64,000 bases of DNA, taken from contig CAVUPH010000028.1 of the NCBI GenBank assembly GCA_963743305.1, positions 22,643 to 86,642 of the forward strand. The letters run 5' to 3'. Below, in pieces: positions 30,314 through 50,518 of this stretch. The translations under genes were made by a program, and so were the position numbers. The notes under the pieces were generated by a model. The model was not told where the DNA came from and searched no databases. It worked only from the letters and a program-made list of their open reading frames with translations. Within the stretch, counting starts at the first letter, position 1. Every line of letters begins with the position of its first letter. Source of the stretch: an uncultured delta proteobacterium. Lineage in GTDB: Bacteria > Desulfobacterota > RBG-13-43-22.

Positions 30314-30318
30314 GGTTT

Positions 30319-31976: not shown

Positions 31977-31977
31977 C

Positions 31978-32560: not shown

Positions 32561-32620
32561 TTCATCTCCATAATTAATAATTAACAATTAATTATTAATT
32601 ATTAACGATCAGTTAGGTTC

Positions 32621-32950: not shown

Positions 32951-33087
32951 AATATCAGGGTGTAGGGTTGGGGGTTAGGACAAGGCAAGGGCTTCCAGAT
33001 GACTTCTCTCTTCTCTCCACTGTCCTCTTTTTTTCTTCCCTCTTCCATCTTCCCTCTGCCTTCTCTCCCCTACCCCCTAAGCCCTCC

Positions 33088-33540: not shown

Positions 33541-33580
33541 CCCGGGACCCAATCATATGCCTTTAACTACCGATCTTGGC

Positions 33581-34156
33581 TCAATCGTTTTCGCTCAGCG
33601 CCCTACGCTCAGCGTCTTCCATCCCCGGCAACGACGGCATGGATTCCGGCCGATGAACACGCGGATTCACTTCATCATAAGCCAGGGCTTCCTCGATATC
33701 CAGGGAGTATTCACAGCAGTGAAGATTTTCTCTTTTCACCTTCTGGGTCTTGAAGGTGTAGGGGCCTTTCAGAATCCCACAGGCCACCTCGACGGCTTCT
33801 TCCGCCATGACTTCCGACAATCGACGGCCTTCTTTCTCCAACTGGGCCCGGCACATCCCCGGTTTCAGCTTGGTCTTGGCGATATAGGCGGGTGTATAAA
33901 GACGGGCCGCGGGTTTGATCCCCAACATATTCAGAAAATAAGAGCCACATTGCTGCTTGCAGCCATCCAGGACAATGACCGGATATTTTTCCAGCAAGGC
34001 GATTTCATCAGGAGCGCCCCGCTGGCAGCGGTGCATGTCCAGGAGTTCCAGTTGACCGGGCAGCATCTCTTCCGTCGCCTTCAAGGAGGCCTGGCGGGTC
34101 ACAGTCGACACCACCAGGCCGACGCCGCCGCAGGGATAGAGCAATACCTTTTTCAT
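33581..34156 (-). CDS. DGC-domain putative zinc-binding protein
   Basis: LYPCGG...VIVLDGCKQQC. Confidence 0.75.
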   Translation of the reverse strand: MKKVLLYPCGGVGLVVSTVTRQASLKATEEMLPGQLELLDMHRCQRGAPDEIALLEKYPVIVLDGCKQQCGSYFLNMLGIKPAARLYTPAYIAKTKLKPGMCRAQLEKEGRRLSEVMAEEAVEVACGILKGPYTFKTQKVKRENLHCCEYSLDIEEALAYDEVNPRVHRPESMPSLPGMEDAERRALSEND

Positions 34157-34175
34157 AATGAAAAACCGTAATTAT

Positions 34176-34332
34176 TGATGGACTCGCAAAAAGTCCATCA
34201 GCAACCCGAGCGCGATTAAGCGTCGGGTTGGGGTGAGGGTGGAACCATTTGAATTCACTTCAAATGGCGGGGGAGGGGAAACCCTTCCCCGCCGAGCAGA
34301 AAGTCGTCTTTTGACTTTTTGCGAGGTTATCA
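34176..34332. mobile_element. MITE-like element
   Basis: Terminal inverted repeats TGATGGACTCGCAAAAAGTC / GACTTTTTGCGAGGTTATCA (13-bp perfect core), internal GC hairpin 34266-34293, TTAT on both flanks. Confidence 0.7.
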
Positions 34333-34355
34333 TTATTGATTATTCGCTTTTATGA

Positions 34356-34928
34356 CTATCCCCCCGACCTTGATTTCGCGGCTTCCATCGGCAGGGGTGG
34401 CATGTTTTTCGGGCGGTAAAGACCCGGTTTGATCCGAATATACCCCAGGTCCCTGGCCGGGTTCCCCTTCCAGTCCCCGATCCGGCCTTCAAAGGGAACG
34501 TTTACTTTTTGCGGAGTAAAACGATAGTCGGGGTCGCTCAGCAACCCCCCGGCCACCTCGGCCATCGTTTCGGCTACCCGTTCGACCAGGTCCAGGCCCT
34601 GGCCTTCCAGGTCCGGACGTCCCGCCTGCGGTTGCAGCCCCCAACTTTCCATCAGTTCCGGCAACAGGATACGGGCCGCCGGCCGGAGACCGATCTGTTT
34701 CATCAGAAAGGAACCACAGCTTTCCTCATGGCAGTCGATCACCAGCGTTGGATTTTTTTCCACCATAACCAGATCTTCCGGAACCCCCCGGTAATAGGCG
34801 GGTACGCAGAGGAGCAGCGTCTTTTTCGGAAGCAGTTCCTCATTAACCCGATAGGTGGCCCAGCGGACCACGGTGGCTTCAGCCTTTTTTATTCCCCCGC
34901 AGGGAAAAAGGACAACGCGACCGACCAT
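34356..34928 (-). CDS. DGC-domain protein paralog
   Basis: LFPCGG...LLCVPA...VIDCHEESCG; aligns with 33581-34156. Confidence 0.72.
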   Translation of the reverse strand: MVGRVVLFPCGGIKKAEATVVRWATYRVNEELLPKKTLLLCVPAYYRGVPEDLVMVEKNPTLVIDCHEESCGSFLMKQIGLRPAARILLPELMESWGLQPQAGRPDLEGQGLDLVERVAETMAEVAGGLLSDPDYRFTPQKVNVPFEGRIGDWKGNPARDLGYIRIKPGLYRPKNMPPLPMEAAKSRSGG

Positions 34929-34977
34929 TAGGGTATTCCTTTAAAGGAAAATAGTCAAAAGAAGGAAATTACCGGAC

Positions 34978-35931
34978 CTAACCCCGGCAGGCCTTTAGAC
35001 AGTCCAAAATCTCTTCTTCATTAATCTTCCACCCCACGAAGGCCAGCGTGGTCGGCCCCTTGGTGTCCAGGGCCAGCCATTCGGTCTTTTTACCGACATG
35101 ATTGATAAAAAACCGGTGACCGTCCAGCAACACATATCCCTTGATCCGGTACAGCCCGGCCGGCACGGACTTGATGAAATCCTTGAAGCAACTTTCGCGC
35201 AAAGGTTTTTCTTCCTCGAAAGCGAAGGCCACGTACCCCAGTTCTTCCGCGTTTCCTGGTTGATCCCGCTTGAACGGGGTGGTCAGTGATATTTCCCCTT
35301 TTCTGATCATGGTGGGCAGCGGTTGCCAGAAGATCTGGGGTTCAATCATACAATGCTCAGTGGGGACAACGGTGCAATAGGGGTTGAATTCCTTGACTTC
35401 CACCAAATAGCGGGAGATGTTTTCCCGGGGCAGGAGATCAACCTTATTAAAAAGCAGCAGGTCGGCGCCTTTGATCTGGTTATAGAACAAGGGGCCGAAA
35501 TATTCCCGGCCCTCCCACAGATCACCGTCCAGGACCGTCACCACCTTGGGAATTTTGACGCGCGGCTCGATAACCGGCCCGCGCAGGAAGAGCAAGATCT
35601 CCAACGGATCAGCCACCCCGGTGGCCTCGATAAACAGGTGGAGAGGATTGAACTTCAACAGGATCTCTTCCACCGTTTTAACCATATCGCCGGCCATGGT
35701 GCAACAGATACAGCCGTTGGTCAATTCATACACCGGGGTTTGGAAGCCTTGCAACAACTCTCCGTCAATCCCCACCCGCCCGAACTCATTGACCAGAACG
35801 GCCGTCCGAGAAAGGTTTCCGGGCCACTGCAAAATACGACGGAGCAGGGTGGTCTTTCCGGCCCCTAAAAATCCGGCGAGGAGGATAAGGTCGCACAAGG
35901 ATTCAGGAGGAGCTTCTTGGGGGGATTTCAT
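34978..35931 (-). CDS. CobW/COG0523 metallochaperone GTPase
   Basis: AGFLGAGKTT, VNEFG, NGCICC, IEATGVADP, NKVD, RIKGY. Confidence 0.93.
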   Translation of the reverse strand: MKSPQEAPPESLCDLILLAGFLGAGKTTLLRRILQWPGNLSRTAVLVNEFGRVGIDGELLQGFQTPVYELTNGCICCTMAGDMVKTVEEILLKFNPLHLFIEATGVADPLEILLFLRGPVIEPRVKIPKVVTVLDGDLWEGREYFGPLFYNQIKGADLLLFNKVDLLPRENISRYLVEVKEFNPYCTVVPTEHCMIEPQIFWQPLPTMIRKGEISLTTPFKRDQPGNAEELGYVAFAFEEEKPLRESCFKDFIKSVPAGLYRIKGYVLLDGHRFFINHVGKKTEWLALDTKGPTTLAFVGWKINEEEILDCLKACRG

Positions 35932-35981
35932 TGGATCTCCTTTCCAAGGGCGACAGAAAGTTTTTATCCTAATAATTTTTT

Positions 35982-36308
35982 GGTTGTTCGCCCTTTTGGG
36001 TGGGTGGCCACAATATCTGGTAGCTTAGACTAAATTCGGGCCTCCGTGGCCGCCGGGTCTCGGCGAAAGGGTTTTCCACCTTGCTTTTTAGGTTCTAACC
36101 CGGCCCCTAGGTCTTCAAATTTTCCAGGAGGCAGGGCCGGCCTGGGAGACGCCAAGAAACACGGGGTTCGGGCCTGCTTAAAATAAAATTAAACACTTAG
36201 GCCCGGATTCAAAGTCCGGAGTACCTTGGAACCTTTGGCAAGGCCTTTCGCCGAGACCCGGCGGCCGCACCAGATCTGATGGGTACCCACCCAAAAGGGC
36301 GAAGCGTC
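35982..36308. repeat. Nested inverted-repeat element (MITE- or structured RNA-like)
   Basis: Perfect 19-bp IR 35987-36005/36285-36303 enclosing a perfect 23-bp IR 36048-36070/36244-36266. Confidence 0.85.
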
Positions 36309-36334
36309 AATTTTTTCAGATCTTTTTGAAAAAA

Positions 36335-36679
36335 TTATTTTTCAAACTTTATTTCAGCGTCCTTGGGCAACGCCATACCCATGGCCACTTCGGCCGTTTT
36401 TAATAACGCTATCGGCACCGGACACATGGGATGGCAGCCGGACTGCTGCGCTGCCTGGAATACGGGGCTCCGGCTGATCGGGGCAAAGAGGTCTCTCAGA
36501 CTGATTTCCCTGATCTGTTCGAAGAAACGCTGGATGTGCTTGCACTCGGAGCCCTGACCCCGAAGTTCGACCAGGTATTTATCTTTTCTTTCCCCGACAA
36601 TGACGCAGGGAAAACCGCAGATTCCCGGATTGACCTTCACCCGGGTGAGGGGTTGTTCATCGGATTCTGTTTCTTCCAT
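36335..36679 (-). CDS. Small Cys-rich conserved hypothetical protein (DUF6951-like)
   Basis: VNPGICGF...SECKHI...CHPMCPVPIALLKTAEVAMGMALPKD. Confidence 0.7.
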   Translation of the reverse strand: MEETESDEQPLTRVKVNPGICGFPCVIVGERKDKYLVELRGQGSECKHIQRFFEQIREISLRDLFAPISRSPVFQAAQQSGCHPMCPVPIALLKTAEVAMGMALPKDAEIKFEK

Positions 36680-36800: not shown

Positions 36801-38861
36801 TTACTTCTGGTGCAGCACTTCCGCCGGCACGATCCCTTCCAGATGCGGGAAGGCGTCCTTCATATGCGGAATTTGCATGGATTCCATGAACTGGACCTGG
36901 AAATCCTTTTCCACGGTCAGTTCGATGTATTCTACGTTGCGGGAGACCCAGTTGGCTTCCACCCGTTTCTCCCGGTTCAACAGGGCCGCCCGGGCGCCGT
37001 CACCGGCCGCGTTGCCCACCGAAAGGATCTTTTCGATAGGGCAGTCCGGGAAGAGACCCATGATCAGGGCCTTGGTCCGGTCCACGTGGGTCCCGAAGGC
37101 CCCGGCGATCTTGACCACATCCACTTTGTCGATGTTCATTTTCCGCATCATCAGCTTACAGCCCGTGTACAGGGCCCCTTTGGCCAACTGGATCTGACGA
37201 ACGTCCTTCTGGGTGACGACCACGTCCTTCTCGATGCTGGTCTCATTGGCCCAGGCGATAACGAATTCCGGCTGTTTGGTGTCGGCGTTCAGACGGTACC
37301 GATTGGATTTCTGCGTCTTGTTGAACACCCCACTCTTCACAATGACCCCCGAGGTATACAGTTCGGCCAGCACATCCAGAATCCCCGATCCACAGATTCC
37401 CTTGGTCTTCATCTCTTCGGGCTTGGAAAAGCTCAACCAGGCATCGCGGCCGATGACCTTGTAATCCACCGCGTGGGTCTCCGGATCGATCTTGATCCGT
37501 TCGATGGCCCCGGGGGCGGCCCGCATGCCGAAGGCCAATTGGGCACCTTCCAGGGCCGGGCCGGTGGCGCAGGAGGAGGAGATGAGTTTTTCCTTGTTCC
37601 CCAAGACCAGCTCGCCGTTGGTCCCGATGTCGATGAGCAATTGGACTTCATCGCTCTTATAAGGCGCCTCGGCGATGAGCACGCCCACGTTGTCCGCCCC
37701 CACAAAACCGGCCTCATTGGGCAGGACATGGACATAGGCCGAATCATTGATCTTGATCTTCAGGTCCCGGGCCTTGATATCCAGGCTCCGGTGGATGACC
37801 GGAGGAAAAGGGGCCAGGCCCACAAATTCCGGGTCCAGCTTAAGTAGGATGTGATGCATGGCCGTGTTGCAGACGATGGTCATGTCCACGATATCCTTCG
37901 GTTCCAGGCGCAGGTAGGTCTTGCCTTCCTCGGGCACCTCTTCCCAGGTCTCAACAACCTGATCGCCTTCTTTGACCTTCTTTTTCTTTTTGGGTGGATA
38001 AGTGGACTCCACGGCCTGCTTGACCAGGGTGTTCAGGCCCTCGATCATGTCGTTGCTCATCCGCTCCAGGCCGTCTTCGTTCATCATATGGTAGGTAATC
38101 CGGCTCATCACGTCTTCCCCGTATTTGCATTGGGGATTCATCATGGAAACCGTTTCGATGACCTCCATGGTCTTCAGGTTACAGAAATAGGCGGCCACGG
38201 TGGTGGTGCCGATATCCACGGCCAGCCCGTAATTGGCCCCCTCTCTTTTGCCGGGCAGAACCCGGATAATTTCTTTGTCCATCCAGATCGAGACGGTCAT
38301 GGCCCAACGTCGTTTATCCCGCAAACGGGCCGGCATTTTCATCAGGGCCCAGTAGTCAATGGTCAGATCCTTGATGCCGAACTGACGGTTCAACTCATCC
38401 TGAAGCCGCTCGAAATCCCCGGTGGGGTGCTCAAAGGTGGGCTCAATGACTTCCACGTAATATTCCTTAACCGCCGGGTTCCAGTCGATGGGAATATCCC
38501 GGGCGGCCTTGCTGACGATCTGCTTTCCGGCCCGCGATTCCTCGGGTACAAAAATCAACAGGTCCCCTTCGATCTTGGCACAACACCCCAACCGGTATCC
38601 CAGTTCGCGCTGTTCCTCGTTGACGAACTTCTCCTCTTCTTCCATCCAGGGGCTGACGTTGTTGCGGCTGGACTGGATTCCGTATTTTTCATAAAAGCCT
38701 TCCTCAATCCGCACCTTGCATTTGCCGCAAACTTTTTTCTCTCCGCAAAGGGCTTCGATATCCACGCCTACCCGGCGGGAGGCTTCAATGATGGTCATCC
38801 CTTTGGCCACTTCGCCTCGCCGGCCGGAAGGCTGAAAAATGATCTTCGCATTTTCACTCAT
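36801..38861 (-). CDS. RACo/RamA-type ATP-dependent reductive activator of corrinoid protein (2Fe-2S + ASKHA, DUF4445)
   Basis: CGEKKVCGKC...RLGC, AVDIGTTT, YGEDVMSRI, IDIGTNGE, CATGPALEG, GICGSG, GNAAGDGA. Confidence 0.93.
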   Translation of the reverse strand: MSENAKIIFQPSGRRGEVAKGMTIIEASRRVGVDIEALCGEKKVCGKCKVRIEEGFYEKYGIQSSRNNVSPWMEEEEKFVNEEQRELGYRLGCCAKIEGDLLIFVPEESRAGKQIVSKAARDIPIDWNPAVKEYYVEVIEPTFEHPTGDFERLQDELNRQFGIKDLTIDYWALMKMPARLRDKRRWAMTVSIWMDKEIIRVLPGKREGANYGLAVDIGTTTVAAYFCNLKTMEVIETVSMMNPQCKYGEDVMSRITYHMMNEDGLERMSNDMIEGLNTLVKQAVESTYPPKKKKKVKEGDQVVETWEEVPEEGKTYLRLEPKDIVDMTIVCNTAMHHILLKLDPEFVGLAPFPPVIHRSLDIKARDLKIKINDSAYVHVLPNEAGFVGADNVGVLIAEAPYKSDEVQLLIDIGTNGELVLGNKEKLISSSCATGPALEGAQLAFGMRAAPGAIERIKIDPETHAVDYKVIGRDAWLSFSKPEEMKTKGICGSGILDVLAELYTSGVIVKSGVFNKTQKSNRYRLNADTKQPEFVIAWANETSIEKDVVVTQKDVRQIQLAKGALYTGCKLMMRKMNIDKVDVVKIAGAFGTHVDRTKALIMGLFPDCPIEKILSVGNAAGDGARAALLNREKRVEANWVSRNVEYIELTVEKDFQVQFMESMQIPHMKDAFPHLEGIVPAEVLHQK

Positions 38862-39033: not shown

Positions 39034-39702
39034 CTATTGTTTTTTCTGCATTTCCCGCAAACGGGCGATCATCTTGATCCCCTCGGCCACGGCATTCCCG
39101 GCTGATTCCGCGTAGCCGTCGGCGCCGAAGAGGTTGGCCACGTCTTTGGTCACCGGAGCGCCGCCGAGCATGATGGCCACATTGGGGTTTTTATCCTTGA
39201 TCATCTTGATGACCTTTTTCATGCCCAACATCGTAGTGGTCATCATGGCCGACATGGCTACGACTTCCGAGTCGGTCCGCATCTGCTCTTCCACGAACTT
39301 TTCGAGCGGCACGTCGCGGCCCAGATCATGGACATCCCAACCGGCCACGTCAAACATCATTTTGACCAGGTTTTTGCCGATGTCATGCACATCACCCTGG
39401 ATGCTGCCGATGACTACCTGGGCGTTCACACCGCCTTCTTTCTTGGGCACGTGGGGGCGCAGGATAGCCAACCCGGCATACAGGGCATCGGCGCACATCA
39501 GGACCTCCGGCACGAAATACTCGTTCCGCTCGTACAACTGCCCGACGACTTCCATTCCGGCGGCCAGACCGTCCATGATCATTTCCAGTGGGGTATAACC
39601 GGCATCAAGGGACTCCTGGGCGGCTTCCTTTACCTGGTCCTCTTTATAGTTGATGACCCCGTCCTTCAAGAGTTCCAATATTTCTTCTTTCGATTTAGCC
39701 AT
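39034..39702 (-). CDS. Methyltransferase cognate corrinoid protein (MtaC/MttC-like)
   Basis: EYFVPEVL, GDVHDIGKNLV B12 motif, DLGRDVP, SAMMTTT, LGGAP. Confidence 0.95.
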   Translation of the reverse strand: MAKSKEEILELLKDGVINYKEDQVKEAAQESLDAGYTPLEMIMDGLAAGMEVVGQLYERNEYFVPEVLMCADALYAGLAILRPHVPKKEGGVNAQVVIGSIQGDVHDIGKNLVKMMFDVAGWDVHDLGRDVPLEKFVEEQMRTDSEVVAMSAMMTTTMLGMKKVIKMIKDKNPNVAIMLGGAPVTKDVANLFGADGYAESAGNAVAEGIKMIARLREMQKKQ

Positions 39703-39764: not shown

Positions 39765-40889
39765 CTAAATCAATGATTTTTCAGGGCCAACCTTGGGTCG
39801 GCTCGATCCGCCATCTATTCTTCCCACGGCCGGCGTGGGACCCGTCTTGTAGGTCCGGGCGGTCTGTTCGATAGCCCGCATGTTTTCTTCCTTGATGTCC
39901 GGCCAGAGATCGCAGCCCGGCCAGACGGCGTCCACCAGACCGTCGATATTGGTTTTGATCCCTGCAATCGCCATCTCCACCGTAGTCTCCTCGGCGCAAG
40001 GCAGCTTAAAGACGTCAAAGTTGCCGACAATCAGGGCTTCGTTGCCCAGCTTTTTCCGGGACTCCAGAAGATTGTTTTTGATATCCACGCTGACTGCCTG
40101 GGCCCCGGAGTCCTTGACGATCTCCCACATCATCTCGATCAACGGATCGGTCGATCCGCAGATATGCAGCACCTTGGGCGCGTTCCAGGCCTTTAGAATC
40201 CGAGTCAACCGGGGTTTGATCATTTCCCGGAAGGTCTTGGGGCTCAACAGGTCGGCGGCTACCCCGGGTTCCCTCAGGGTGATGTAATCCGCCCCGGCGG
40301 CCAGCAGGGCCTTCCCGTTGTTGGCGATCATCTCGGTAAACTGGTCGAGGATAGCTTCTACTTTGGCCTTTTCTTTGAAGACCCCCTTAAGGACCTTATC
40401 CAGTTCGATGGTCTGGCCGCATTGGGTAAAGGGGCCCAACTGCCAGGCGCCGAGGGCCAGTTCCGGGGCCTCTTTTTTCACGATCTTTATGGCTTCGGGG
40501 ATGAGATTCATGGGGTAGCGATCCATAAGGTGATCGATATCGTTCCGGGTAATCTTGACGTCATCCATCGTCACCCACTTTTTGGTGGGGATCGTGGGAT
40601 AAAGGGTATCCTCGGAATCCGCATACAGGCTGATCTCGTTCCCCAAGGCTTCTGATTCCCAGCACATATCATAGGGAATAACGACGGAATCCAATTTGAA
40701 CATGCGGGCCGACTCGATGCCCGACCAGGCCAACTTCTCGGCATCGCGATGAACGGACGGAAATTTTATTCCCAGTTTCTTGATGGCCGGGCGAAGCACC
40801 ATGCCCATGCCGGTGAAGAAAGGCATCACATCCACCGGTTCTCTTTTAAAAAACTTCATGACACGATCATAAGGGGTTAGTTGCGCCAT
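39765..40889 (-). CDS. MtaA/CmuA (URO-D fold) corrinoid methyltransferase
   Basis: DMCWESEALG, GPFT, Zn ligands LHICG and WPGCD. Confidence 0.88.
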   Translation of the reverse strand: MAQLTPYDRVMKFFKREPVDVMPFFTGMGMVLRPAIKKLGIKFPSVHRDAEKLAWSGIESARMFKLDSVVIPYDMCWESEALGNEISLYADSEDTLYPTIPTKKWVTMDDVKITRNDIDHLMDRYPMNLIPEAIKIVKKEAPELALGAWQLGPFTQCGQTIELDKVLKGVFKEKAKVEAILDQFTEMIANNGKALLAAGADYITLREPGVAADLLSPKTFREMIKPRLTRILKAWNAPKVLHICGSTDPLIEMMWEIVKDSGAQAVSVDIKNNLLESRKKLGNEALIVGNFDVFKLPCAEETTVEMAIAGIKTNIDGLVDAVWPGCDLWPDIKEENMRAIEQTARTYKTGPTPAVGRIDGGSSRPKVGPEKSLI

Positions 40890-40923: not shown

Positions 40924-42885
40924 TTAGACGCTCAGAGTCACCACCCGGTAGCAGCGCAGGCAGCGTTCCGCCTCGGCAACCGCCGCTGCGGGGGAATAAC
41001 CCTGTTCCACTTCCATGAAATTCCGGTTCCGTTCCTCCGGGAGCAGCTTCGTCAGCGGGATCCGCTCCTGTTTTTCGGGTACTCGGACCTCCTCCTGCGG
41101 ATCATAGACCCGAATGGTCTTAAAAAGGCTGTCAAAAAGATCATCCTGATCCGGCTCCAACGGCAGACCATTGATCAGGCGGTCAATACTCTCTGCGGCC
41201 TTTTTTCCGTTGGCCGCCGCCTCGATAACCGATCGGGGTCCGTTGACCGCGTCCCCCCCGGCAAAGATGTTCGGATCATCGGTCTGCAGGGTATACGGGT
41301 TTACCTTGACCGTTCCCCAGTCGGAGAGGGTGCATTGGCAATCGGGCCCCAGGCAGGCCCAGTCGGATTCCTGTCCCAAGGCCGGGATTACCCCATCGAC
41401 TTCCAGGATAAATTCCGACCCGGCCACCGGGACCGGACGTCTGCGGCCGGAGGCATCCGGTTCACCCAGGGTCATCTGCAGACATTCCACCGCCGTTACT
41501 TTCCCCTGCACCCCGATGAGGCGTTGGGGGTTCACCAGGGTCTGGAGCTCAATGCCCTCCGCCAGACAGTCGGCGATCTCTTCAGCGTGGGCCGGCATCT
41601 CCTCCCGGCCTCGGCGGTATAGGATCAAGACCTTTTCGACCCCTAGACGTTTGGCCGTTCGGACGGCATCGATGGCCACGTTGCCGCCGCCAATCACAGC
41701 CACCCGCTTTCCCAGCTTGATCGATTTACCCAGTTTGACATCCCGCAGGAAATCCACCCCGGGATACACCCCCTCGAGGTCTTCTCCTTCAATGCCCAAC
41801 GTCTTGCATTCCTGGGCCCCGATGGAAAGAAAGAAGGCCTGGAAGCCTTCTTCCCGGAGTCGTCCGATGGTGTTTTCGGAGCCAATACTCATCCCCGACC
41901 GGAGTTCCACTCCCAGGTCGATAATGGATTTAATCTCCCCTTCGCGTACCAGGGACGGCAAACGATAGTCCGGGATGCCCAGAGCCAGCATGCCGCCGTT
42001 TAAGGTCTGTTTTTCAATAATGGTGACCCGATGCCCCTTCAAGGCCAGATGGTAGGCACAGGTCAGACCCGCCGGACCGGCCCCGATAACCGCTACTTTC
42101 CCGGTGTTGGCCGAAGGCCTAACCTGAACTTCCGGCCATTGGTTTTTGGCCGCCGCCTGGTCGGCGGCAAACCGTTTCAGAGACCGGATGGCAATGGGTT
42201 GATCCGCATTGGCCCGCCGGCAGTTTTCCTCGCAGGGGTGATAGCAAACCCGTCCCACGATGCCCGGCAGGGGCAATCGTTCCCGGATCACGGCCAGGGA
42301 ATCGTCAAATTTGGCATTTTTTATCGCTTCCACGTACTTGGGTACATCCAGATGGATCGGGCAGGCATCCATGCAGGGAGCGTTAACCTTGGACAAATAG
42401 CTGCCGGACGGGCCGCCTGATCCCCCCTGGTTTTTCTTCTTCAATTCGTCCAGAAAATAGCGGGCCAGATGCAGGGCCGGGTTCGGGCCCATCTTGCCGA
42501 TGTTGCATTTCGAGGATTCGATGACGGCCTTCCCGGAATTTTCAAAAAATTCGAGGTCCTCGTCGGTAGCCTCCCCGTGGTAAACATCTTTCAGGACATC
42601 GAGCATCTCAGCATAACCGGTTGTACAATAATTGCATTTGTTGCAAGCGCTGGAAACCTTATGTACCTCCTCGAGGTAGGCCTTGACCAAGTCAACGACA
42701 TCCACCTCCGGGTCGCGGATCAGGATGCCGTCCCATCCGGCCAGTGCTCTGATTCTTTGGCCGGGTCTAAAGAATTCGGGCAGTTCGGCCTTTTCCACGG
42801 CTTCAAAAGACGCGGCCTCCCGACCACGATTGTCTACCACCTGTCCCCCCCAGGAACTGAATATGATATCCCTCATAACCTCCAT
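40924..42885 (-). CDS. FeS-flavoprotein, GltD/NfnB-like NAD(P)H oxidoreductase with NuoF-like N-terminal 4Fe-4S domain
   Basis: SACNKCNYC...SKCNIG, APCMDACP, GRVCYHPCEENC, GAGPAG, GGGNVAID, YRR, FAGGD, EAERCLRC. Confidence 0.88.
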   Translation of the reverse strand: MEVMRDIIFSSWGGQVVDNRGREAASFEAVEKAELPEFFRPGQRIRALAGWDGILIRDPEVDVVDLVKAYLEEVHKVSSACNKCNYCTTGYAEMLDVLKDVYHGEATDEDLEFFENSGKAVIESSKCNIGKMGPNPALHLARYFLDELKKKNQGGSGGPSGSYLSKVNAPCMDACPIHLDVPKYVEAIKNAKFDDSLAVIRERLPLPGIVGRVCYHPCEENCRRANADQPIAIRSLKRFAADQAAAKNQWPEVQVRPSANTGKVAVIGAGPAGLTCAYHLALKGHRVTIIEKQTLNGGMLALGIPDYRLPSLVREGEIKSIIDLGVELRSGMSIGSENTIGRLREEGFQAFFLSIGAQECKTLGIEGEDLEGVYPGVDFLRDVKLGKSIKLGKRVAVIGGGNVAIDAVRTAKRLGVEKVLILYRRGREEMPAHAEEIADCLAEGIELQTLVNPQRLIGVQGKVTAVECLQMTLGEPDASGRRRPVPVAGSEFILEVDGVIPALGQESDWACLGPDCQCTLSDWGTVKVNPYTLQTDDPNIFAGGDAVNGPRSVIEAAANGKKAAESIDRLINGLPLEPDQDDLFDSLFKTIRVYDPQEEVRVPEKQERIPLTKLLPEERNRNFMEVEQGYSPAAAVAEAERCLRCYRVVTLSV

Positions 42886-42959: not shown

Positions 42960-43949
42960 CTATCGTTCGACCTTTTTCAAGGCCGCCGCCTTATCCCAAC
43001 TGACGCTCAACTGATTGGCAAAATCGGGCCACAGTTTGAGCAACGGGTGATTGGGATCCGGAGGCAACTTCTTGGTTTCATCAAAAACGGTGGTGGCCAG
43101 AAAGGCGTCGGCCAGGGCCACGGCGGGCATTACCCGGGCGGCGCCGGCCATGGGACCCGTAAAGATCAGGTCGTTATAAAAGAAGGCCCCCAAAGACTCC
43201 ACGGCCGCGTCAATGCCGGCCCAGGCCTTGAAATCCCCCTTTTCCCGATACTTCTTCAGTTCCATATAAGAACCATTGCTGGGGGCACTGGCTCCCAGAT
43301 AACCCCACTTTTCTTTAATGAGTTTATTGGCCAAACCACACATGGCTGTGGCCGGGGCGTTCAAGACCGAAGTGTCAATAATGATGGTTTCGAATTTGGC
43401 CCCCACTTTTTCGATAGCGTCCAGCAGTTTCTGGGCTCCGGTAATGCGCCCGGTCGGCATCTGGTCCGCCATGTCAAAAGCCACCAGCAGGACATGTTTC
43501 ACCCCAATCCGGGCAATCTCCTTGATCTCGGTTTCAATGTTTTCTTCCCAGACGGTCAGGCTGTTGTAAAACATGCGGTCCAGCAGTCCTTTTTCGGCGC
43601 AATACGCCGCCCCGTCGATCTTGGTTTGCATGGTTATGGAGTCGATACAAAAAGGCATTTTGCTGTTAGCCACAACGAAATCGATGAATTTATTGAATTT
43701 TTCACCAGGGCTGGCCACGATGTCCGCCATGGCGGGAACACCCAACTCGGCGGTGTACCGGTCACATGTTTTTAACAGCTCGGCCGCTCGCTGTTCATTG
43801 AACCCCTTCCGCCGAGCCCCTTTATCAAAAATTTTATCGCTTTCCTGAAATATGGAAAAACAACAGACCGTGGGATAATCTCCCGGCTGTCCGCCGAAAG
43901 TCACCCCGCCGACAGTTGCGACCTTTTGCTCCTTAGCGAATCTGAACAT
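42960..43949 (-). CDS. MtrH/MtgA-like methylcorrinoid:tetrahydrofolate methyltransferase
   Basis: MFRFAKEQKV...FGGQPGDYPT, PFCIDS, FYNSL, IIDT, GASAPSN. Confidence 0.85.
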   Translation of the reverse strand: MFRFAKEQKVATVGGVTFGGQPGDYPTVCCFSIFQESDKIFDKGARRKGFNEQRAAELLKTCDRYTAELGVPAMADIVASPGEKFNKFIDFVVANSKMPFCIDSITMQTKIDGAAYCAEKGLLDRMFYNSLTVWEENIETEIKEIARIGVKHVLLVAFDMADQMPTGRITGAQKLLDAIEKVGAKFETIIIDTSVLNAPATAMCGLANKLIKEKWGYLGASAPSNGSYMELKKYREKGDFKAWAGIDAAVESLGAFFYNDLIFTGPMAGAARVMPAVALADAFLATTVFDETKKLPPDPNHPLLKLWPDFANQLSVSWDKAAALKKVER

Positions 43950-44027: not shown

Positions 44028-44417
44028 TCAATCCACCCGGGTATGTTGCCCCGACCCGGCCTTGGCCAGGTTTTCCTGGATCTTGTCGAACTCAAAGCCC
44101 ACTTCCCGCAAGGCCATGATGCGATCGGCCATAGCGGGGTTAGGCGCCCGCTTGGCCATCTCGTCGATCAATTCTTCGTACTGCGGGATGATGCTTTCAA
44201 AAACCAGATCACCCATGATGCAGATCGTGGGCAGAACCCGGCCTTTGAGCTCCAGAAACTTGCCGATCCCGGTCTTTGTTTTAATGGACCATTCGGAGTA
44301 TTCAATCATTTCCTGGACGTCCTTGGGCAATGCGGCGATGGATTCCATCATATACCCACAGGCGGCGCACTGCACACTGTCCAGGGTCAACACATCGATT
44401 TGAATTTTATCTGCCAT
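44028..44417 (-). CDS. Thioredoxin-fold protein (CAAC)
   Basis: SD AAGGAGG; MADKIQIDVLTLDSVQCAACGYMMES...LPTICIMGDLVFESIIP. Confidence 0.85.
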   Translation of the reverse strand: MADKIQIDVLTLDSVQCAACGYMMESIAALPKDVQEMIEYSEWSIKTKTGIGKFLELKGRVLPTICIMGDLVFESIIPQYEELIDEMAKRAPNPAMADRIMALREVGFEFDKIQENLAKAGSGQHTRVD

Positions 44418-44440: not shown

Positions 44441-45475
44441 CTACCACTTTTCAGGGTATTTGGCGTAGTATTGTTCAAACCAGGCCTTGGCTTCATACGC
44501 TTGATCCATGTGTTCCACCGGAACATCATAGGGCATGTCTCAGCCAGGGGCGAAGGTGAATCCGGTGGCCCCTCCAGAGGCCAGACTGACGATCGCATCT
44601 TCTCTCGGTGACAACAAGCCGAGGCTGAGGGCCAGGGTCAGCTTCAGGTTGCCGCCGAAGCCCACGCCATATTTCAGAGCCATGTCCCGGACCCAGAGGA
44701 GATTCAACTGTTCATCGATGGCAAATCCGTGGGTGCCTAGTTTACAGACCTCCTCCATGACCCGGGTACAGTCCCCGCAAATGAAGAAAGAAGAGGTCTT
44801 ATCGGCGTCATGGATAGCTTTGATGGCCGGTTGACAGTTGGGGGTGACAAATTCCCGAAAGGTTTCCGGTTTGATCTGGGAGGCCACCGGATCGACGATG
44901 GCGATGATGTCACAGCCCATCTCAGCGTAAAATTTGGCCGAAGCCGCCCCGACTTCACCGGCAAACTTGATGACTTCGTGGGCCTTGTCCTTATTTTTGT
45001 ACACGTCGGTAAAGATGCGGACCCCGGCCAAATGGGAAGCCAGGGTCAAGGGACCGCAAAGCAGGCCCATCATCACGCAATCCGCCTCATCCAGTTGCGG
45101 TTTGGCGAGTTTGGCGCCCTCAAAAATAACCGGCCAGCGGCCGGCCTCTTTGCCGGGGACTTTAAGCCCGGATTGGGCTAAGGTTTTGTCCGATAGCGGG
45201 TGGTTGGTGACGGAAGGCACGTTATCCGGCCACCATTTGAGGTCACAACCGACGGCGTTAGCTTCCACCGAAAGATCGAAGAGCAAGGGAACGCCGTCCG
45301 CGTGGTACCGCTTGGCAGCGGCGACCACCCCTTTGGCTAACAGTTGAGGATCTTTTAAGAATTTGTCCGCTGGTTCATTAATTAAAAAGGCTGAATGTAC
45401 CCCTGAATAAGGCACCCAGGGAACCGCTGCCGGTCTTTTTCCCCTGTACGCATCAATCAAATTCTGTTTGGACAT
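44441..45475 (-). CDS. URO-D/MtaA-fold methyltransferase, selenoprotein (344 aa)
   Basis: FDLSVEANAVG, GPLTLA, FFICGD, then FTFAPG-U(TGA 44542-44540)-DMPYDVPVEHM...EKW-TAG; matches family motif APGCD(I/M)P; hairpin 44511-44525. Confidence 0.88.
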
Positions 45476-45815: not shown

Positions 45816-46478
45816 CTAACGGTCGGGCTCCACCAAACCTAAGGAAACTCCCAAATGGATTAACTGGGCCGTGCTGGTCACCTCCAGCTTTTCCATGATA
45901 TTACGGCGGTGGGTTTTCACGGTACTCAAGCTGACACAAAGCAAGCCGGAAATGGTCTTGGTAGGGTACCCTTCGGCAATCATCTGGAAGATCTCCCGCT
46001 CCCGGTTGGAGAGCTGGTTGAACCGTTCCTCCTTAGGGGAGCTTTTCCGCAAGGAAAGGTAACTGTCCACCAGGACTTTGGAGATGGAGGGGCTGAGAGA
46101 GGTCTCCCCCTTCATGGCCGCCTGAATAGCCTTGATAATATCCCGGCCACTCGATTCCTTCAACAAATAGCCGGATATTCCGGCCTCGAGCAACTCATGA
46201 ATATAGTGTTCATGGGAATACATGGAAAGGATCAGGATCTTGATTTTCGGAAGGTTCTTCCGGATCCTCCGGGCGGCCTCAATGCCGTTTAAAAGCGGCA
46301 TGGCAATATCCATGACCACTACATCCGGCAGGAGGGCCATGGCCTTCTCGATGGCCATCCGCCCGTCATAGGCCTCGCCGACCACCTTGAAATCCGGCTG
46401 GTCTTCCAGCAGGCGGGCCAACCCCTGCCTGACGATGGTGTGATCGTCGACGATCAGGATCCTAATGGGCGATTCCAT
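45816..46478 (-). CDS. NarL/FixJ-family response regulator (REC + LuxR HTH)
   Basis: ILIVDDH, DVVVMDIAMP, GYLLK, LSNREREI...TVKTHRRNIMEKL. Confidence 0.95.
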   Translation of the reverse strand: MESPIRILIVDDHTIVRQGLARLLEDQPDFKVVGEAYDGRMAIEKAMALLPDVVVMDIAMPLLNGIEAARRIRKNLPKIKILILSMYSHEHYIHELLEAGISGYLLKESSGRDIIKAIQAAMKGETSLSPSISKVLVDSYLSLRKSSPKEERFNQLSNREREIFQMIAEGYPTKTISGLLCVSLSTVKTHRRNIMEKLEVTSTAQLIHLGVSLGLVEPDR

Positions 46479-48700
46479 GGGACTCCGGCAAGGGAATTTC
46501 TATGCGAATCCGGGTCCCCTCACCCGGTCGGCTTTTAATCTGAAAATTGCCTTCCAGTAAAGAAGTCCGTTCCCGCATACCCAGCAGGCCCAGGCTCCGC
46601 TTGCTTTTTCCGCTGATCTGGCCATCAAACCCAATCCCATCATCTTCGGCCAAAAAAATGATCTTCGGGTAGCTTTTAATGATGGAAAGTTGAAAATTCT
46701 TGGCCTGCCCGTGGTTTAAGGTGTTGGTCAGGGCCTCCTGGCTGAAACGGTAAAGCACGGTTTCCAGGTCCGGGTCCAAGCGGCGATCAAAACCGACCAT
46801 GCGGAAGTCGATATTCAATTTGGAATGAACGGCCACTTCTTTTAAGTAGAGGTCCAGTGCCGGTCTTAACCCCAGGTCGCTCAACAGGGTCGGATGCAGC
46901 CGATACGAAAGCCGCCGGATCTCCGAAGAAGTCCGGACCAGCATTTTACGAATCTCGGAAATCTCATTTTTTAATTTTCCGTTTTCTTCCGGGGCGGCCT
47001 CCTCCAGCCGATCCAGACCCAGTTTGACCGCCGTCAGGGCCTGACCGGCTTCGTCGTGAAGCTCTCGGGCGATGCGACGGCGTTCTTCTTCCTGGCTTTG
47101 GAACAGTTTTTCCGTCAGCCGGCGCAGTTCCTGGCGGTGTCGGCGGATGGTCTTCATTAACTGAATATTTTCCAACCCGCCTCCCAGAAAATTGCATAAG
47201 GAGCCCAAAAGATGGCTTTCCGGGGGGCTGAGTTCCCTGCCCCGGGGCAGATACAGTCCAAAAAAGCCCTGGCTCTCCCCTTTGGCCGTAATCAGAAAAC
47301 AGGACAGCCAGGGTACTTTTTCGCCGCTTTCCGCTGGATACGTGGCCTGAAAAGTCGGAAAGGCCGGTTTCGGGGTCAGCTTGACCGTGCTCTCCAGAAG
47401 GCTTTGTTTCAACAACTCATCTTTAAAATGCACGCCAATAGAAAAATTCGGATCTTGGGGGGGCAGCCCCTGGCGATTCTGAAGCAGGAATCTTTTCTTT
47501 TCCCGGTCGATAAAAAAAACCCCCCCTTTTTTCAGCCGCAGCGCCCGGAGAATACTGGTGAGGGTCTCATCGAGGATTCGGTTCAAGTCCATAGTCTTAT
47601 TCAGGATCACGGCGGTTTTATTGAGAAGGAAGAGTTCCATGTTGCGTTTACGTAAGGCTTCCTCCGCCTTTTTACGCTGGGTGATGTCCTTGATGATCCC
47701 CTCGAATTCCACGTCCCCCGAGTCGGAATTGATATAACGACGGCTGGAGATCAGCACATGCATAGGAGATCCGTCCTGTTTTTTGAAGTCGATTTCGAAA
47801 TCCTTGACATTACCGTATTGGTTGATCAACTGCAGGAACTTTTCCCGATCTTCCACCCGACGGTATAACCCTCTGGCCGATCCCAGCGACAATAAAGCCC
47901 TTTTGTCGGGATAGCCCAACATCTCGACCCCGGCCTGGTTGACATCCTTGATGGTGCCTTCCAGATTGGTGACATAGATCATATCATGGGAGCCTTCAAA
48001 GATACGGCGGTATTTCTTTTCCCGTTGGACGATCTCCTCCTGTAGGCGCTTCTGTTCGGTAATATCCTTGAAGATTTCAATCCCCCCGGTGATCTGTCCT
48101 TCGTCATCCAAAAACACCGAAGTGGAGCAGATGATGGGGACTTTCTTTCCCTCGATGTTGGTGATAGTGTATTCCCGGTTGTTGATATTGGTTCCCATCT
48201 TTACCGCCTGTTTCAAAGCGCAGTCCACTTCGCAAATATGGTTCTTAAAAACATCCTTGCAGTACATGCCTAAGGCGTCGTAGGCTGAGAACCCGGTGAT
48301 TTCCTCCGCCGCCGGGTTGAAGTAAGTGATGCGAAATTCTCGGTCGGTGGTGAACAACCCATCGGGAATCCGGTTCAGAATTTCTATAAAGCTGCCTTCC
48401 TTCTGGTAAATCTGTTCAATGGCCTTGACATTGTAGAGCCTGAGCTGTTCCGCAAAGAAAACATTCCAACCCTGGGGATGCTGTTCGCCTCGCTTCAAGA
48501 AATAGGGACAGGTCAGACAGTGGGCTAATTTTTCAAAATAATCTTCCCCGGTTGAACCGGAGCATTGGGTGTGGGGGACGAGCCAACAAACGGTCTGTTT
48601 TTTGGCGAAAGCCGGACAGAGGACCTTGTTGCAGGATAAAAATTCCCAGCAGCCGGCAGCTTGAACGGGCAGGAGACTAACGATTCCCTTGGTCGTTTTT
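46462..48700 (-). CDS. Sensor histidine kinase: Cys/Trp-rich domain, 2 PAS, GAF-like, HisKA_3, HATPase (likely continuous with upstream V4R ORF)
   Basis: CWEFLSC...CPAF...CWLV...CLTCPYF; FNPAAEEITG; EERRRIARELHDEAGQAL; EDDGIGF; GLLGMRER; no convincing own start codon. Confidence 0.88.
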
Positions 48701-49288
48701 TTGGGCCAAGAACTCACAGTAGGGATCCCCCATGGCGCGGCAACCGACTTCCCGGGCCTGGAAGCAGAAACAGCCGTCCGGATAGTCTTCGCCATACAGC
48801 AGGTCCATGAAAGCGGCGGCCACTCCCTGAAGCATATAGCATTTCCCGGTTTTGGATTGGCCGTAATCTTGAAGATACCCGGTGGCTTCATAAGAATCCC
48901 GGACCTGAAGGCGCAAAGACTGTCCGGGCTCGATGGCCATAACCTCCAGGGCACCCCAGCCGAAGGCCTCGGCCATGGCCGTAAAACCCAGGATCTGATC
49001 TTCCGGCTTCTCGATCATCGGCTGCACCAGTTGCTGCCATTCCCAGGAATTTCGGATTCCATGAAAGGTGGCGTAGCCACATTCCTGGGCCGCCGCGATC
49101 AGCAGGGCGGCCGGTTCCGGGCCCCGATCTTCTCCCAGTCGTTTTTCAAATTCAAAGGATAGGCGATTGTAATAGCGGACAAAAAAAAGGGAGAGGTACA
49201 CTCCAAAAATGGGGATTATCCCCTTGGACTCCCGAATCCGGCTTCCTTCCATCACCGCCTGAATTATTTTATAGCCGTCGATAGGCAA
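48677..49288 (-). CDS. V4R-domain protein (probable N-terminus of the kinase)
   Basis: FGWGAL, DSYEA, CYMLQGVAAA, EVGCRAMGDPYCEF. Confidence 0.8.
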   Translation of the reverse strand: MPIDGYKIIQAVMEGSRIRESKGIIPIFGVYLSLFFVRYYNRLSFEFEKRLGEDRGPEPAALLIAAAQECGYATFHGIRNSWEWQQLVQPMIEKPEDQILGFTAMAEAFGWGALEVMAIEPGQSLRLQVRDSYEATGYLQDYGQSKTGKCYMLQGVAAAFMDLLYGEDYPDGCFCFQAREVGCRAMGDPYCEFLAQKNDQGNR

Positions 49289-49327: not shown

Positions 49328-49852
49328 TCATGATTTCTTCCGGACCACAAAAAGACATTGGGGATGGCCCATTATTTTACAAGCCTCCTCCTCCACCTGG
49401 TAATGACCCAGGGAACGGTTGTAGATCATGGCCATAACCCCGGCGATCCAGCCCCGGGTAAAGTGACAGCCCGGGTGCTCGCGGCGGCCGTGCTTGGCCA
49501 GCCAGCCGATAACGTGATGGCTGGAGATCCCGATAATCCGTCCCCCCCTACTGCTCATCTTTTGAAAATGGATAATGCCCAACCCGCAATTCTGGTACAG
49601 GGTGGCCATAAGTTCCAACTTGGATTTGATCGTCCGTATCCGATCGAACTGTTTGAGCATAGCCTGGAACCCATGGAAGGCGGCTTCTTCGGCAGACTGA
49701 ACAATTAAATCAATCCCCTCCTGCCCCATATGGTCTTCCAACATCTTGTGCAGGTTGATGTTGTAGTGGTGGCAATGCATGGCGATGTGCAGCCCGGAAA
49801 GGGTAATCCGGGATCCATCGCGGGCCAGTTCGTTTCGCCAGTCTATGATCAT
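49328..49852 (-). CDS. Stand-alone V4R-domain protein
   Basis: HCHHYN, CGLG, CHFTRGWIAG, EEACKIMGHPQCLF. Confidence 0.8.
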   Translation of the reverse strand: MIIDWRNELARDGSRITLSGLHIAMHCHHYNINLHKMLEDHMGQEGIDLIVQSAEEAAFHGFQAMLKQFDRIRTIKSKLELMATLYQNCGLGIIHFQKMSSRGGRIIGISSHHVIGWLAKHGRREHPGCHFTRGWIAGVMAMIYNRSLGHYQVEEEACKIMGHPQCLFVVRKKS

Positions 49853-49978: not shown

Positions 49979-50518
49979 TTACCGCTCGGCGCTGATCCTC
50001 CCGGGAACGCCCTTATCATAATAGTGTTTGATCATCCGCATTTCGGTGACCAGGTCGGCTTTATCTATGATTTCCGGCGGGGCATACCGGCCGGTGAGGA
50101 TTAATTCCATGCCGGCGGGTTTAGCTTCCATAAGTTTGAGGACCTCCTCCAACGGAATCAACCCGTAGGCGGTGGCGATATTGATTTCATCCAGGATCAG
50201 AATATCGCAGACCTGGTAGCGGATCACCTGCCAGGCCTTATCCAAAGCTTTTTGCGCCAATTCCCGATCTTTGAATCCGGGATTGGCCAGGTTGGCAAAA
50301 CCGGCCCGGCCCATGGGTTTGATGGTCAGCAGAGGCCCCAACTTTTTGGCCGAAGCAATCTCTCCGGTCTTCTGCGGCCCTCCCTTCAAAAATTGGATCA
50401 TGTAGACCTTGCGCCCGTGGCCGACCGCCCGCATGGCCAGCCCCAGGGCGGCCGTGGTCTTCCCTTTGCCTTCGCCGGTATAGACCTGAATCATGCCCCT
50501 GACAGTAGTCTCAGCCAT
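49979..50518 (-). CDS. cobO: ATP:cob(I)alamin adenosyltransferase (CobO/BtuR)
   Basis: VYTGEGKGKTTAALG, IQFLKG, LDEI, LILTGR, ADLVTEM...KHYY. Confidence 0.92.
   Translation of the reverse strand: MAETTVRGMIQVYTGEGKGKTTAALGLAMRAVGHGRKVYMIQFLKGGPQKTGEIASAKKLGPLLTIKPMGRAGFANLANPGFKDRELAQKALDKAWQVIRYQVCDILILDEINIATAYGLIPLEEVLKLMEAKPAGMELILTGRYAPPEIIDKADLVTEMRMIKHYYDKGVPGRISAER

Follow-up and report, generated by a model that had tools for sequence, protein, structure and literature searches.

Analysis of a 64,000-nucleotide stretch of DNA from an uncultured delta proteobacterium (Desulfobacterota; GenBank assembly GCA_963743305.1, contig CAVUPH010000028.1, positions 22,643 to 86,642; hereafter the window) revealed a gene for a methyltransferase of the URO-D/MtaA fold, located on the minus strand at 44441..45475, in which an in-frame TGA codon (44540..44542, minus strand) is almost certainly read as selenocysteine (Sec). 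The gene belongs to a real, widespread and mis-annotated selenoprotein family, whose mechanism we infer from sequence, structure models and gene neighbourhoods. The overall best explanation, which we consider reasonably probable, is a Sec-containing branch of the corrinoid methyltransferases that acts on a soft substrate at a metal site kept in order by a thioredoxin-like partner (TrxL).

An in-frame TGA codon is very probably read as selenocysteine

With TGA translated as Sec, the gene encodes 311 residues, U312 and 32 further residues before a TAG stop codon (44441-44443, included in the coordinates), giving a protein of 344 residues. The coordinates had been correctly assigned in an initial annotation made from the sequence alone, and its motifs were found again when the translations were re-read: FFICGD and APG-U-DMP, continuing as APG-U-DMPYD, in the Sec protein versus LHICG and WPGCDLWP in a paralog encoded at 39765-40889.

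One genome per species was scanned, which gave 123 relatives; the best 80 loci among them were examined. In addition, the 120 best protein homologs were taken from the database; as a separate figure, 1025 protein clusters matched at an E value of 1e-10 or better. The codon at position 312 is TGA in 78 of the 80 loci and TGC in the other two (L087 and L089), and this codon is, together with the alignment to MtaA described below, the basis for assigning U312. The reading frame continues for 29-33 codons past the TGA in 79 of the loci, the exception (L083) being interrupted by the end of its contig, and the tail has the conserved form DMPYDVPVEHM...YPExW. The initial annotation had named homologs ending at APG, or a tail lacking conservation, as observations that would speak against its reading; neither applies, the tail being kept in 79 of 80 loci. 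Among the database proteins, three (P0004, P0005 and P0011) are full-length natural Cys forms in which PGCD is followed by the same tail, while 117 of 120 terminate at ...PG, from which we conclude that gene callers halted at the TGA. The next gene of the operon itself terminates with TGA (44028-44030), so this codon is not generally reassigned here. Because the URO-D profile match spans the TGA, the loci carry either TGA or TGC, Cys-form homologs exist and TGA serves as a stop elsewhere in the operon, read-through is supported beyond chance.

The alternative, a true stop codon or a pseudogene whose product ends at APG and whose downstream frame is coincidental, could draw on the same 117 database homologs called as ending at ...PG and on the failure to find SelA in the genome. 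It has to contend with a tail conserved in 79 of 80 loci, TGC in two of them, a downstream hairpin with invariant wobble positions, a tail that forms the last barrel helix in the model of a Cys ortholog, and the presence of tRNA-Sec, SelB and SelD in the genome, and we regard it as extremely improbable. Two further read-through candidates in the 26-52 kb part of the window (26313-27518 and 30801-31976) were rejected, as no supporting domain was found beyond the TGA and their tails are of low complexity.

A putative SECIS hairpin and the selenocysteine machinery

Bacterial selenocysteine insertion sequence (SECIS) elements are small hairpins with a G in the apical loop about 20 nucleotides past the UGA. 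The features observed at 44506..44531 (minus strand) fit these rules: in the putative SECIS hairpin, nucleotides 18-23, counted from the U of UGA, pair with 27-32 as the core stem beneath a GGU triloop, and in the window the stem reaches nucleotides 12-37 with A17 bulged. The conserved hairpin extends over nucleotides 17-33 past the UGA. Comparison of the 74 distinct TGA sequences downstream of the UGA revealed that the core pairs are formed in 73-74 of them and that the triloop reads GGT in 54, GGC in 14, GTT in four and GGA in two. The wobble positions 18, 21, 24 and 27 within the stem-loop are 100% conserved; of the remaining third positions of codons, 30, 33 and 36 (within the 3' arm and just past it) are conserved to 92-95%, and those farther out to 42-82%. 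Pair 20-30 is switched from U-A to C-G, a compensatory change, in three sequences (L073, L074 and L078), and the hairpin is lost in the Cys form L087. The other natural TGC ortholog, L089 from a Desulfonema metagenome-assembled genome (MAG; 6647-8278), keeps the hairpin sequence and is followed by a CobO-like gene, not TrxL; here Sec may have given way to Cys recently, along with a loss of the partner.

Of the Sec machinery, the genome encodes a SelB frame of 657 residues, one tRNA-Sec (TCA) and SelD. A few results point, modestly, in the other direction. The compensatory change is confined to three related sequences and may reflect one or two events, and a Rfam scan of the window at gathering thresholds returned no matches. 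By itself, the window hairpin is thermodynamically unremarkable (z -1.03), with 29 of 200 shuffles folding equally well. In addition, SelA was not found with PF03841 or TIGR00474 in the genome assembly, which is 90.12% complete with 5.71% contamination.

The SelD gene on contig C26 (75850-76774; L091 and L092) was matched as two overlapping hidden Markov model pieces, the N-terminal one with one in-frame TGA; this SelD is probably itself Sec-containing, and a frame change possibly lies between the two pieces. Contig C14 (98761-98895 and 100710-100799; L002 and L004) holds a second, short frame that encodes 283 residues including a SelB winged-helix domain, and some 2 kb away a 92-nucleotide tRNA. 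This tRNA scores 50.8 bits, above the Rfam tRNA-Sec threshold, and is called tRNA-Cys (GCA) by ARAGORN; it is reminiscent of the tRNA-Sec-like Cys tRNAs of some anaerobes.

Fold assignment and the metal-ligand positions

The Pfam URO-D profile (PF01208) matches the protein across the TGA, covering residues 2-329 of 344 and profile positions 2-342 of 346 at 159 bits (cut-off 23.9; E 2.1e-46). The sole solved structure found by sequence was MtaA of Methanosarcina mazei (4ay7; E 5.2e-25, about 25% identity). In the HMMER alignment, HICGN of MtaA lies over FICGD and APGCG over APG-U-D, so that the TGA falls on the second Cys of the His-x-Cys...Cys motif and Phe231 on its His, and VEE of MtaA, the acidic pair, is aligned with IDE of the Sec protein. 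The placement of Sec at the metal-ligand Cys in the initial annotation thus held up: the TGA aligns with the second zinc-ligand Cys of 4ay7 and is very probably read as Sec.

The structure model used here is that of the natural Cys ortholog P0004, which is 75% identical to the window protein. It was predicted with a mean predicted local distance difference test score (pLDDT) of 95.0, and residues 320-336, past the Cys, form the last helix of the barrel, so that a product ending at APG would miss part of the fold. The best PDB match of the model was again MtaA (4ay8_A/4ay7_A; template modelling (TM) score 0.87, root-mean-square deviation 2.2 Å), with UroD structures reaching TM scores of 0.76-0.82.

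A straightforward assignment to the known enzymes is opposed by the NCBIfam scores, which lie below the curated cut-offs for MtaA/CmuA (TIGR01463, 133.7 vs 235.4 bits), MtaA (NF040654, 101.9 vs 400 bits) and MtbA (NF041608, 85.9 vs 600 bits). Nor is the His-x-Cys...Cys ligand set present: all 80 loci have Phe231 in place of the His, Cys233 is retained, and the last Cys is Sec in 78 and Cys in two of the 80. Because of the scores and the missing ligand set, we filed the protein as a distinct branch outside the curated subfamilies, one that probably works like an MtaA-type enzyme. Invariant across the branch are C233, G311, C/U312 and D313 (48 sequences). A role of C233-G-D-C236 as an essential redox CxxC motif was rejected, as C236 is replaced by Ala in 9 of 80 loci and in 6 of the 120 database proteins.

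The Phe branch and the origin of Sec

The motif FFICGD is found in all 80 loci, both TGC loci included, as well as in the three Cys-form database proteins. Phe is therefore constant whichever residue follows APG, and the coupling between loss of the His and gain of Sec that the initial annotation had suggested is not borne out by the C/U and H/F co-variation check it had proposed. A wider search, reduced to representatives at 50% identity, yielded 1670 relatives, of which 83 of at least 300 residues were aligned and those with both Cys kept. Among these representatives, the ligand position is Phe in 17 and His in 41. The Phe group (F-x-C...GCD) shares 30-39% identity with the query and the His group about 26-28%. 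Position 255 is Glu in 94% of the Phe group (n=17) vs 4 of 41 members of the His group, and Glu255 may, as judged from this conservation, replace the missing His ligand.

A quick maximum-likelihood search, rooted at the midpoint, placed the Phe sequences in one clade with 100% support in the Shimodaira–Hasegawa-like approximate likelihood ratio test (SH-aLRT), with the Sec clade nested inside it, likewise at 100%. The Cys forms P0121 and P0004 lie at the base of the Sec clade, and P0005, P0011 and L087 are scattered within it. Since the wider, Cys-containing branch also has F-x-C...GCD and the Sec clade is nested inside it, Phe is older than Sec; the topology suggests that Sec was acquired once, within a branch where Phe was already present, and was replaced by Cys again several times.

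These Cys forms also bear on an idea raised in the initial annotation, namely that Sec itself is the methyl acceptor or carrier, with a metal-bound or free selenolate receiving the methyl group of either methyl-Co(III) or the substrate before handing it on. Sec sits exactly at the ligand position, a selenolate is by established chemistry a better nucleophile and leaving group than a thiolate, and a more anionic Glu/Cys/Sec site would increase ligand nucleophilicity; the zinc-bound Cys of Ada, which accepts a methyl group, provides an analogy. Natural Cys forms exist, however, inside the Sec clade (P0005, P0011, L087 and L089) and throughout the wider Phe branch, which implies a chemistry without an absolute need for selenium. 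The corrinoid protein of the cluster is moreover already a methyl carrier, and a methylated Sec would need an extra acceptor step, for which we know of no precedent. We consider such a role of Sec improbable.

A dedicated thioredoxin-like partner

Directly after the Sec gene, at 44028..44417 on the minus strand, lies the gene for TrxL, a protein of 129 residues with a CAAC motif, a VLPT motif of the cis-Pro type and a conserved C-terminal extension, which is thioredoxin-like by weak family and fold matches. It occupies this place in 74 of the 80 loci; five loci end too soon, and the Cys form L089 has another gene there. Conservation amounts to 80% mean column identity over 35 orthologs, with the CAAC motif, V-L-P and the 40-residue C-terminal extension being invariant. 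C17-A-A-C20 lies just ahead of a helix at residues 18-28, V61-L-P63 is invariant, and the order of secondary-structure elements fits beta-alpha-beta-alpha-beta-beta-alpha. The model reached a mean pLDDT of only 69.7, and its best Foldseek matches were all thioredoxins, though weak (E of at least 2.1e-3, TM scores 0.44-0.56). A match to NCBIfam NF047660 was weak as well (E 1.1e-7, below the curated cut-off), a Pfam search of TrxL returned no match, and an Atlas look-up gave its own family together with glutaredoxin-like and Thioredoxin_3-like clusters scoring below 0.9. The 1831 listed database relatives are called 'hypothetical' wherever they are named. TrxL resembles the MTH895/ArsE-family and HUIPC-motif thioredoxin-like proteins (TIGR00412, NF047660) in being a small protein of thioredoxin fold with CxxC (or UxxC) at the start of helix 1 and a cis-Pro-type motif; in contrast to these, it scores below their cut-offs, carries the 40-residue extension and is tied to one enzyme family.

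Fusions were found among Cys-type members of the Phe branch that belong to other phyla. The URO-D proteins P0126, P0129, P0130 and P0135 carry a C-terminal domain that is 35-43% identical to TrxL (E 2.6e-13 to 4.4e-19) and share the tail motif LDS/LNS-xxCAxCxYM, with P0152 giving a weaker TrxL-like match (23%, E 9e-7). The fused domains match TIGR00412 and NF047660 weakly, below the curated cut-offs. Relatives of the fused form were detected in metagenome contigs (192), and the source names, where given, are Sphaerochaetaceae and Thermotogota MAGs. In 27 fused loci of at least 9 kb, the neighbours include CobW-type GTPases (two clusters, in 12 and 6 loci), a corrinoid protein (9), MttB-family methyltransferases (6), Thioredoxin_3 (6), RACo (5) and betaine/carnitine/choline transporters (BCCT; 2). 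The fusions to Cys-type relatives and the neighbours of these fused genes led to the conclusion that enzyme and thioredoxin partner form one functional module, which works with corrinoid proteins and predates selenium. On two metagenome contigs (L098 and L100, at about 4600-9400), the fused gene immediately follows genes for an MttB-family methyltransferase and a BCCT transporter; the fused protein is probably the methyl-corrinoid:acceptor enzyme of a quaternary-amine demethylation system.

The gene cluster in the window and in other loci

In the window, the Sec gene opens a cluster that lies entirely on the minus strand. Behind TrxL follow an MtrH/MtgA-like methyl-corrinoid:tetrahydrofolate methyltransferase (42960..43949; Pfam MtrH E 8.7e-39, with PRK00979 at E 3.8e-70 and MtgA at E 7.6e-46 both below curated cut-offs) and a GltD-like iron-sulfur flavoprotein (40924..42885) with NuoF-type 4Fe-4S, Fer4_20 and Pyr_redox_2 domains, a candidate for electron supply. 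Next come the canonical MtaA-like paralog with LHICG...WPGCD, i.e. His-Cys-Cys (39765..40889), the corrinoid methyl-carrier protein (39034..39702; Pfam B12-binding and B12-binding_2, TIGR02370 E 1.3e-61) and a RACo-type ATP-dependent reductive activase of corrinoid proteins (36801..38861; Pfam RACo_C_ter E 5.8e-93). The corrinoid protein and RACo encoded with the Sec gene match the gene context of zinc S-methyltransferases of the MtaA/MtbA/MtsA type.

Downstream of RACo, the stretch 27344-36679 is a run of putative metal- and redox-handling genes, again on the minus strand: a DUF6951 protein (36335..36679), which is a recurrent neighbour of the module and occurs upstream of the Sec gene in L026; a CobW/COG0523-type GTPase and putative metal chaperone (34978..35931; Pfam cobW E 6.5e-42); two DGC-domain proteins (34356-34928 and 33581-34156); a GcvH/lipoyl-like protein (33088-33552); a Thioredoxin_3 protein (31978-32292); a TSCPD-domain protein (30999-31976); and a second CobW (27344-28369). 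Upstream of the Sec gene are a LuxR-type response regulator (45816-46478) and a PAS histidine kinase (46462-48954), both on the minus strand and probable regulators. A Cys-rich N-terminal stretch with several C-x-x-C-like spacings precedes the two PAS domains of the kinase, which may thus be a redox or metal sensor. Beyond it lie two V4R-domain proteins (48677-49288 and 49328-49852) and a CobO/BtuR adenosyltransferase (49979-50518).

A kinase/regulator pair is likewise linked to the cluster in many of the 80 loci, and CobW-type genes are found near the module in most of them and directly adjoin the fused forms. The position of the Sec gene at the head of the cluster, stressed in the initial annotation, holds for the window, L011 and L022 and does not extend to other loci: in 42 of 80 the genes for the corrinoid protein and RACo are located upstream of it, and elsewhere it is separated from them and accompanied by the thioredoxin partner alone. 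In the Olavius Delta 1 symbiont (L026, 6699-12289), the Sec gene lies amid genes for DUF6951, DUF2284, TrxL, an unassigned frame of 98 residues, an MTH895/ArsE-family thioredoxin, CobW and a thioredoxin-reductase-like protein, so that DUF6951 and DUF2284 flank the module on one side and the second Thioredoxin_3 (MTH895/ArsE), CobW and the reductase-like gene on the other. DUF2284 of this locus is similar to a domain that arsenite-methyltransferase selenoproteins carry as a fusion, though the match (E 3.9e-17) falls far short of the cut-off. Excerpts of a 2022 review (PMC9312934) list a CobW-like selenoprotein from Olavius symbionts.

No transporter was seen among the annotated genes of the window cluster and of two Desulfobacterota loci examined in detail, with which a small membrane-permeant substrate would fit, although this is a weak argument. 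The genome of the window has one copy each of the Sec gene and TrxL. A second corrinoid methyltransferase cluster, on contig C12 (about 124000-130400), comprises two URO-D genes, of which one shares 40% identity with the canonical paralog, together with genes for a corrinoid protein (54%), a RACo-like protein and a GltD-like flavoprotein.

Proposed mechanism

We hold it likely that the Sec enzyme catalyses methyl transfer that depends on a corrinoid protein. In the proposed mechanism, the corrinoid protein, in its methyl-Co(III) or Co(I) state, would exchange the methyl group with a soft nucleophile or leaving group, i.e. a thiol, sulfide, selenol or metalloid, and the substrate atom would be activated at a metal site, probably of zinc, composed of Cys233, Sec312 and Glu255 or Asp254. 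With the His swapped for a carboxylate and both soft ligands kept, such a site would be more anionic than His-Cys-Cys and suited to S, Se or a metalloid, and Sec would raise nucleophilicity as well as leaving-group ability. The Cys-Sec pair could readily be oxidised to a selenenylsulfide with loss of the metal, in analogy to the redox-sensitive zinc sites of other homocysteine/thiol methyltransferases. TrxL would then re-reduce the selenenylsulfide, either as maintenance or as a redox gate, and CobW-type GTPases would reload the metal, making TrxL and CobW a maintenance crew for this site as RACo is for cobalt.

The specific Glu/Cys/Sec metal site with the thioredoxin as its keeper is put forward tentatively, as a serious candidate, and a number of points count against it. 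The canonical His ligand is absent, it is conservation that points to Glu255 as its replacement, and the metal site is a putative one, with indirect support from the linkage to CobW-type GTPases. Most known Sec residues are redox-active rather than metal ligands, which favours a redox role. That Sec is mostly redox-active is also the thesis stated in the title of PMC1794560.

In the rival reading, a catalytic cycle, Cys233 and Sec312 would form a redox pair, and every turnover would link methyl transfer to a two-electron step that leaves a selenenylsulfide for TrxL to reduce, with electrons drawn from a Trx_3/thioredoxin-reductase chain or from the flavoprotein of the cluster. As candidate reactions, methyl-Co(III) could serve a Challenger-type methylation of As(III), Se or Te, or an oxidised methyl donor (a disulfide, sulfoxide or pentavalent methyl-metalloid) could first be reduced and then demethylated. 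Such a cycle would suit a thioredoxin partner that is dedicated, near-invariant (80% mean column identity) and sometimes fused, the succession of module, second Thioredoxin_3/MTH895-ArsE-family protein and thioredoxin-reductase-like gene in L026, the likeness of the DUF2284 neighbour to the arsenite-methyltransferase selenoprotein domain, the Thioredoxin_3 gene of the window and the common use of Sec as a substitute for redox-active Cys. MtaA reportedly promotes metalloid methylation with methylcobalamin. On the other hand, neither the window nor the loci examined showed any ars, selenium-handling or sulfoxide genes, the presence of CobW-type metal chaperones next to split as well as fused forms speaks for a metal site, and the fused Cys forms adjoin MttB-family, corrinoid-protein and BCCT genes, where an ordinary methyl-corrinoid:acceptor methyltransferase would be expected. 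In addition, 9 of 80 loci have Ala instead of C236, the other Cys of the CxxC-like motif. Taken together, the catalytic redox cycle appears unlikely to us.

A different chemistry, as proposed in the initial annotation, is conceivable, its evidence being the dedicated thioredoxin-like partner, on which that annotation touched only briefly. That a metal-selenolate or a Cys-Sec redox pair couples cobalamin-dependent methyl transfer with a thioredoxin-driven two-electron step is rather doubtful; if true, it would mean a corrinoid-based methylation or demethylation of Se, As or S species in anoxic sediments that is independent of S-adenosylmethionine (SAM). In that case the enzyme would also be, to our knowledge, the first natural one with a Sec ligand in a substrate-activating zinc site.

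Relation to known enzyme systems

The Sec enzyme shares with MtaA of M. mazei (4AY7/4AY8) the fold, the two sulfur-ligand positions, the acidic pair and a corrinoid protein encoded nearby; it differs in having Phe for His, Sec for the second Cys, a dedicated thioredoxin-like partner and a bacterial host. Similar in gene content are the Mlp proteins of type 1 mlp clusters, described in excerpts of Kountz and Balskus (bioRxiv 2023, PMC10418091) as bacterial MtaA homologs encoded with a corrinoid protein and a RACE/RACo activase, for which the authors propose methyl-sulfur or methyl-selenium substrates. According to these excerpts, type 1 clusters are enriched in Sec-using anaerobes and encode, at a minimum, orthologs of Mlp2 and Mlp3 (His-Cys-Cys) along with a corrinoid protein and a RACE protein; nearly every Mlp has the His-Cys-Cys set, and mlp clusters are without a tetrahydrofolate methyltransferase (PMC10418091). 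The window has a corrinoid protein, RACo and two URO-D proteins, one of which is the Sec enzyme. This enzyme has Phe-Cys-Sec with the branch-specific Glu and is accompanied by an MtrH-type gene and the thioredoxin-like partner, features that differ from those given for Mlps in the excerpts, where no passage was found that describes an Mlp as a selenoprotein.

The same excerpts state that His-Cys-Cys marks the S-methyltransferases of the URO-D superfamily, while oxygen-directed members replace the Cys ligands (Kountz and Balskus, PMC10418091). This is relevant to another alternative, in which the enzyme is a metal-free methyl-corrinoid methyltransferase that serves a non-thiol acceptor (tetrahydrofolate or an oxygen nucleophile) and whose Cys/Sec is a regulatory redox switch read by TrxL. 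The ligand His is indeed lost, oxygen-substrate enzymes of the superfamily with altered or missing ligands are described in the excerpts of PMC10418091, and the fused forms stand at the MT2 place beside MttB-family genes, with no MtrH-type gene among the annotated recurrent neighbour clusters. Both S/Se ligands are, however, invariant across the branch (48 sequences), the altered sites described in those excerpts concern Cys instead of His, an MtrH-type tetrahydrofolate methyltransferase is already encoded in the window cluster, and CobW genes are linked to the module. We therefore think a metal-free enzyme about as improbable as Sec acting as the methyl carrier.

Sec forms of HgcA, the arsenite methyltransferase ArsM and MduS are listed in excerpts of a 2026 review (PMC13188914). 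As in the Sec enzyme described here, Sec in these proteins, so far as the excerpts describe them, takes the place of a Cys that, in the context of methyl transfer, binds or attacks a soft atom (Co, As); they differ in being SAM-dependent or corrinoid-binding proteins of unrelated folds in place of a URO-D barrel. No Sec form of the URO-D/MtaA family was found in the excerpted texts of PMC13188914, PMC9312934, PMC1976440 (Olavius), PMC2398784 (GOS) and PMC1794560, whose supplements could list it, and literature searches combining selenoprotein with URO-D, MtaA or coenzyme M methyltransferase likewise retrieved none. The Olavius Delta 1 genome carries the Sec gene (L026), although the excerpted text of the Olavius study (PMC1976440) is without such a family. 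The initial annotation had been aware of no characterised Sec form of this family, which agrees with these selenoproteome catalogue texts, and the selenoprotein family is apparently uncatalogued.

Distribution and significance

The family occurs in Desulfobacterales, Desulfarculaceae, Syntrophobacteraceae, SAR324 and the Olavius Delta 1 symbiont. Its distribution is patchy: the gene was found in 5 of 21 genomes of the class of the window and in 9 of 401 sampled genomes of the phylum, 8 of these 9 with one TGA inside. Two cultured strains, Desulfospira joergensenii DSM 10085 and Desulfocicer vacuolatum DSM 3385 (L068 and L078), are carriers. Sequences of relatives appear in runs labelled as wetland, soil and sediment metagenomes, with small word shares, and the names of related MAGs point to groundwater and peat. 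Contigs of relatives (85-99% alike) from four metatranscriptome libraries lie on both the Sec gene and TrxL; one from run X16 bridges the TGA, and one from run X19 bridges the TGA and the junction to TrxL. Since DNA may be present in such libraries and a contig attests neither a transcript nor its level, they amount to a weak hint at transcription; uncovered stretches carry no information.

With this widespread family, a relative of which came up in 123 species-level genomes, the corrinoid methyltransferases join the selenoproteome. The protein is systematically mis-annotated as one of 311 residues, as 117 of the 120 best database entries stop at the Sec codon. Sec at the zinc-ligand position of a thiol-activating methyltransferase would be an unusual use of selenium, and the Phe/Glu rearrangement of the site, the dedicated and sometimes fused thioredoxin partner and Sec together define a testable enzyme module, for which the cultured carriers make experiments possible. 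Given its sulfate-reducing hosts and its wetland, soil and sediment sources, the module could bear on the turnover of methyl-sulfur, methyl-selenium or methyl-arsenic compounds.

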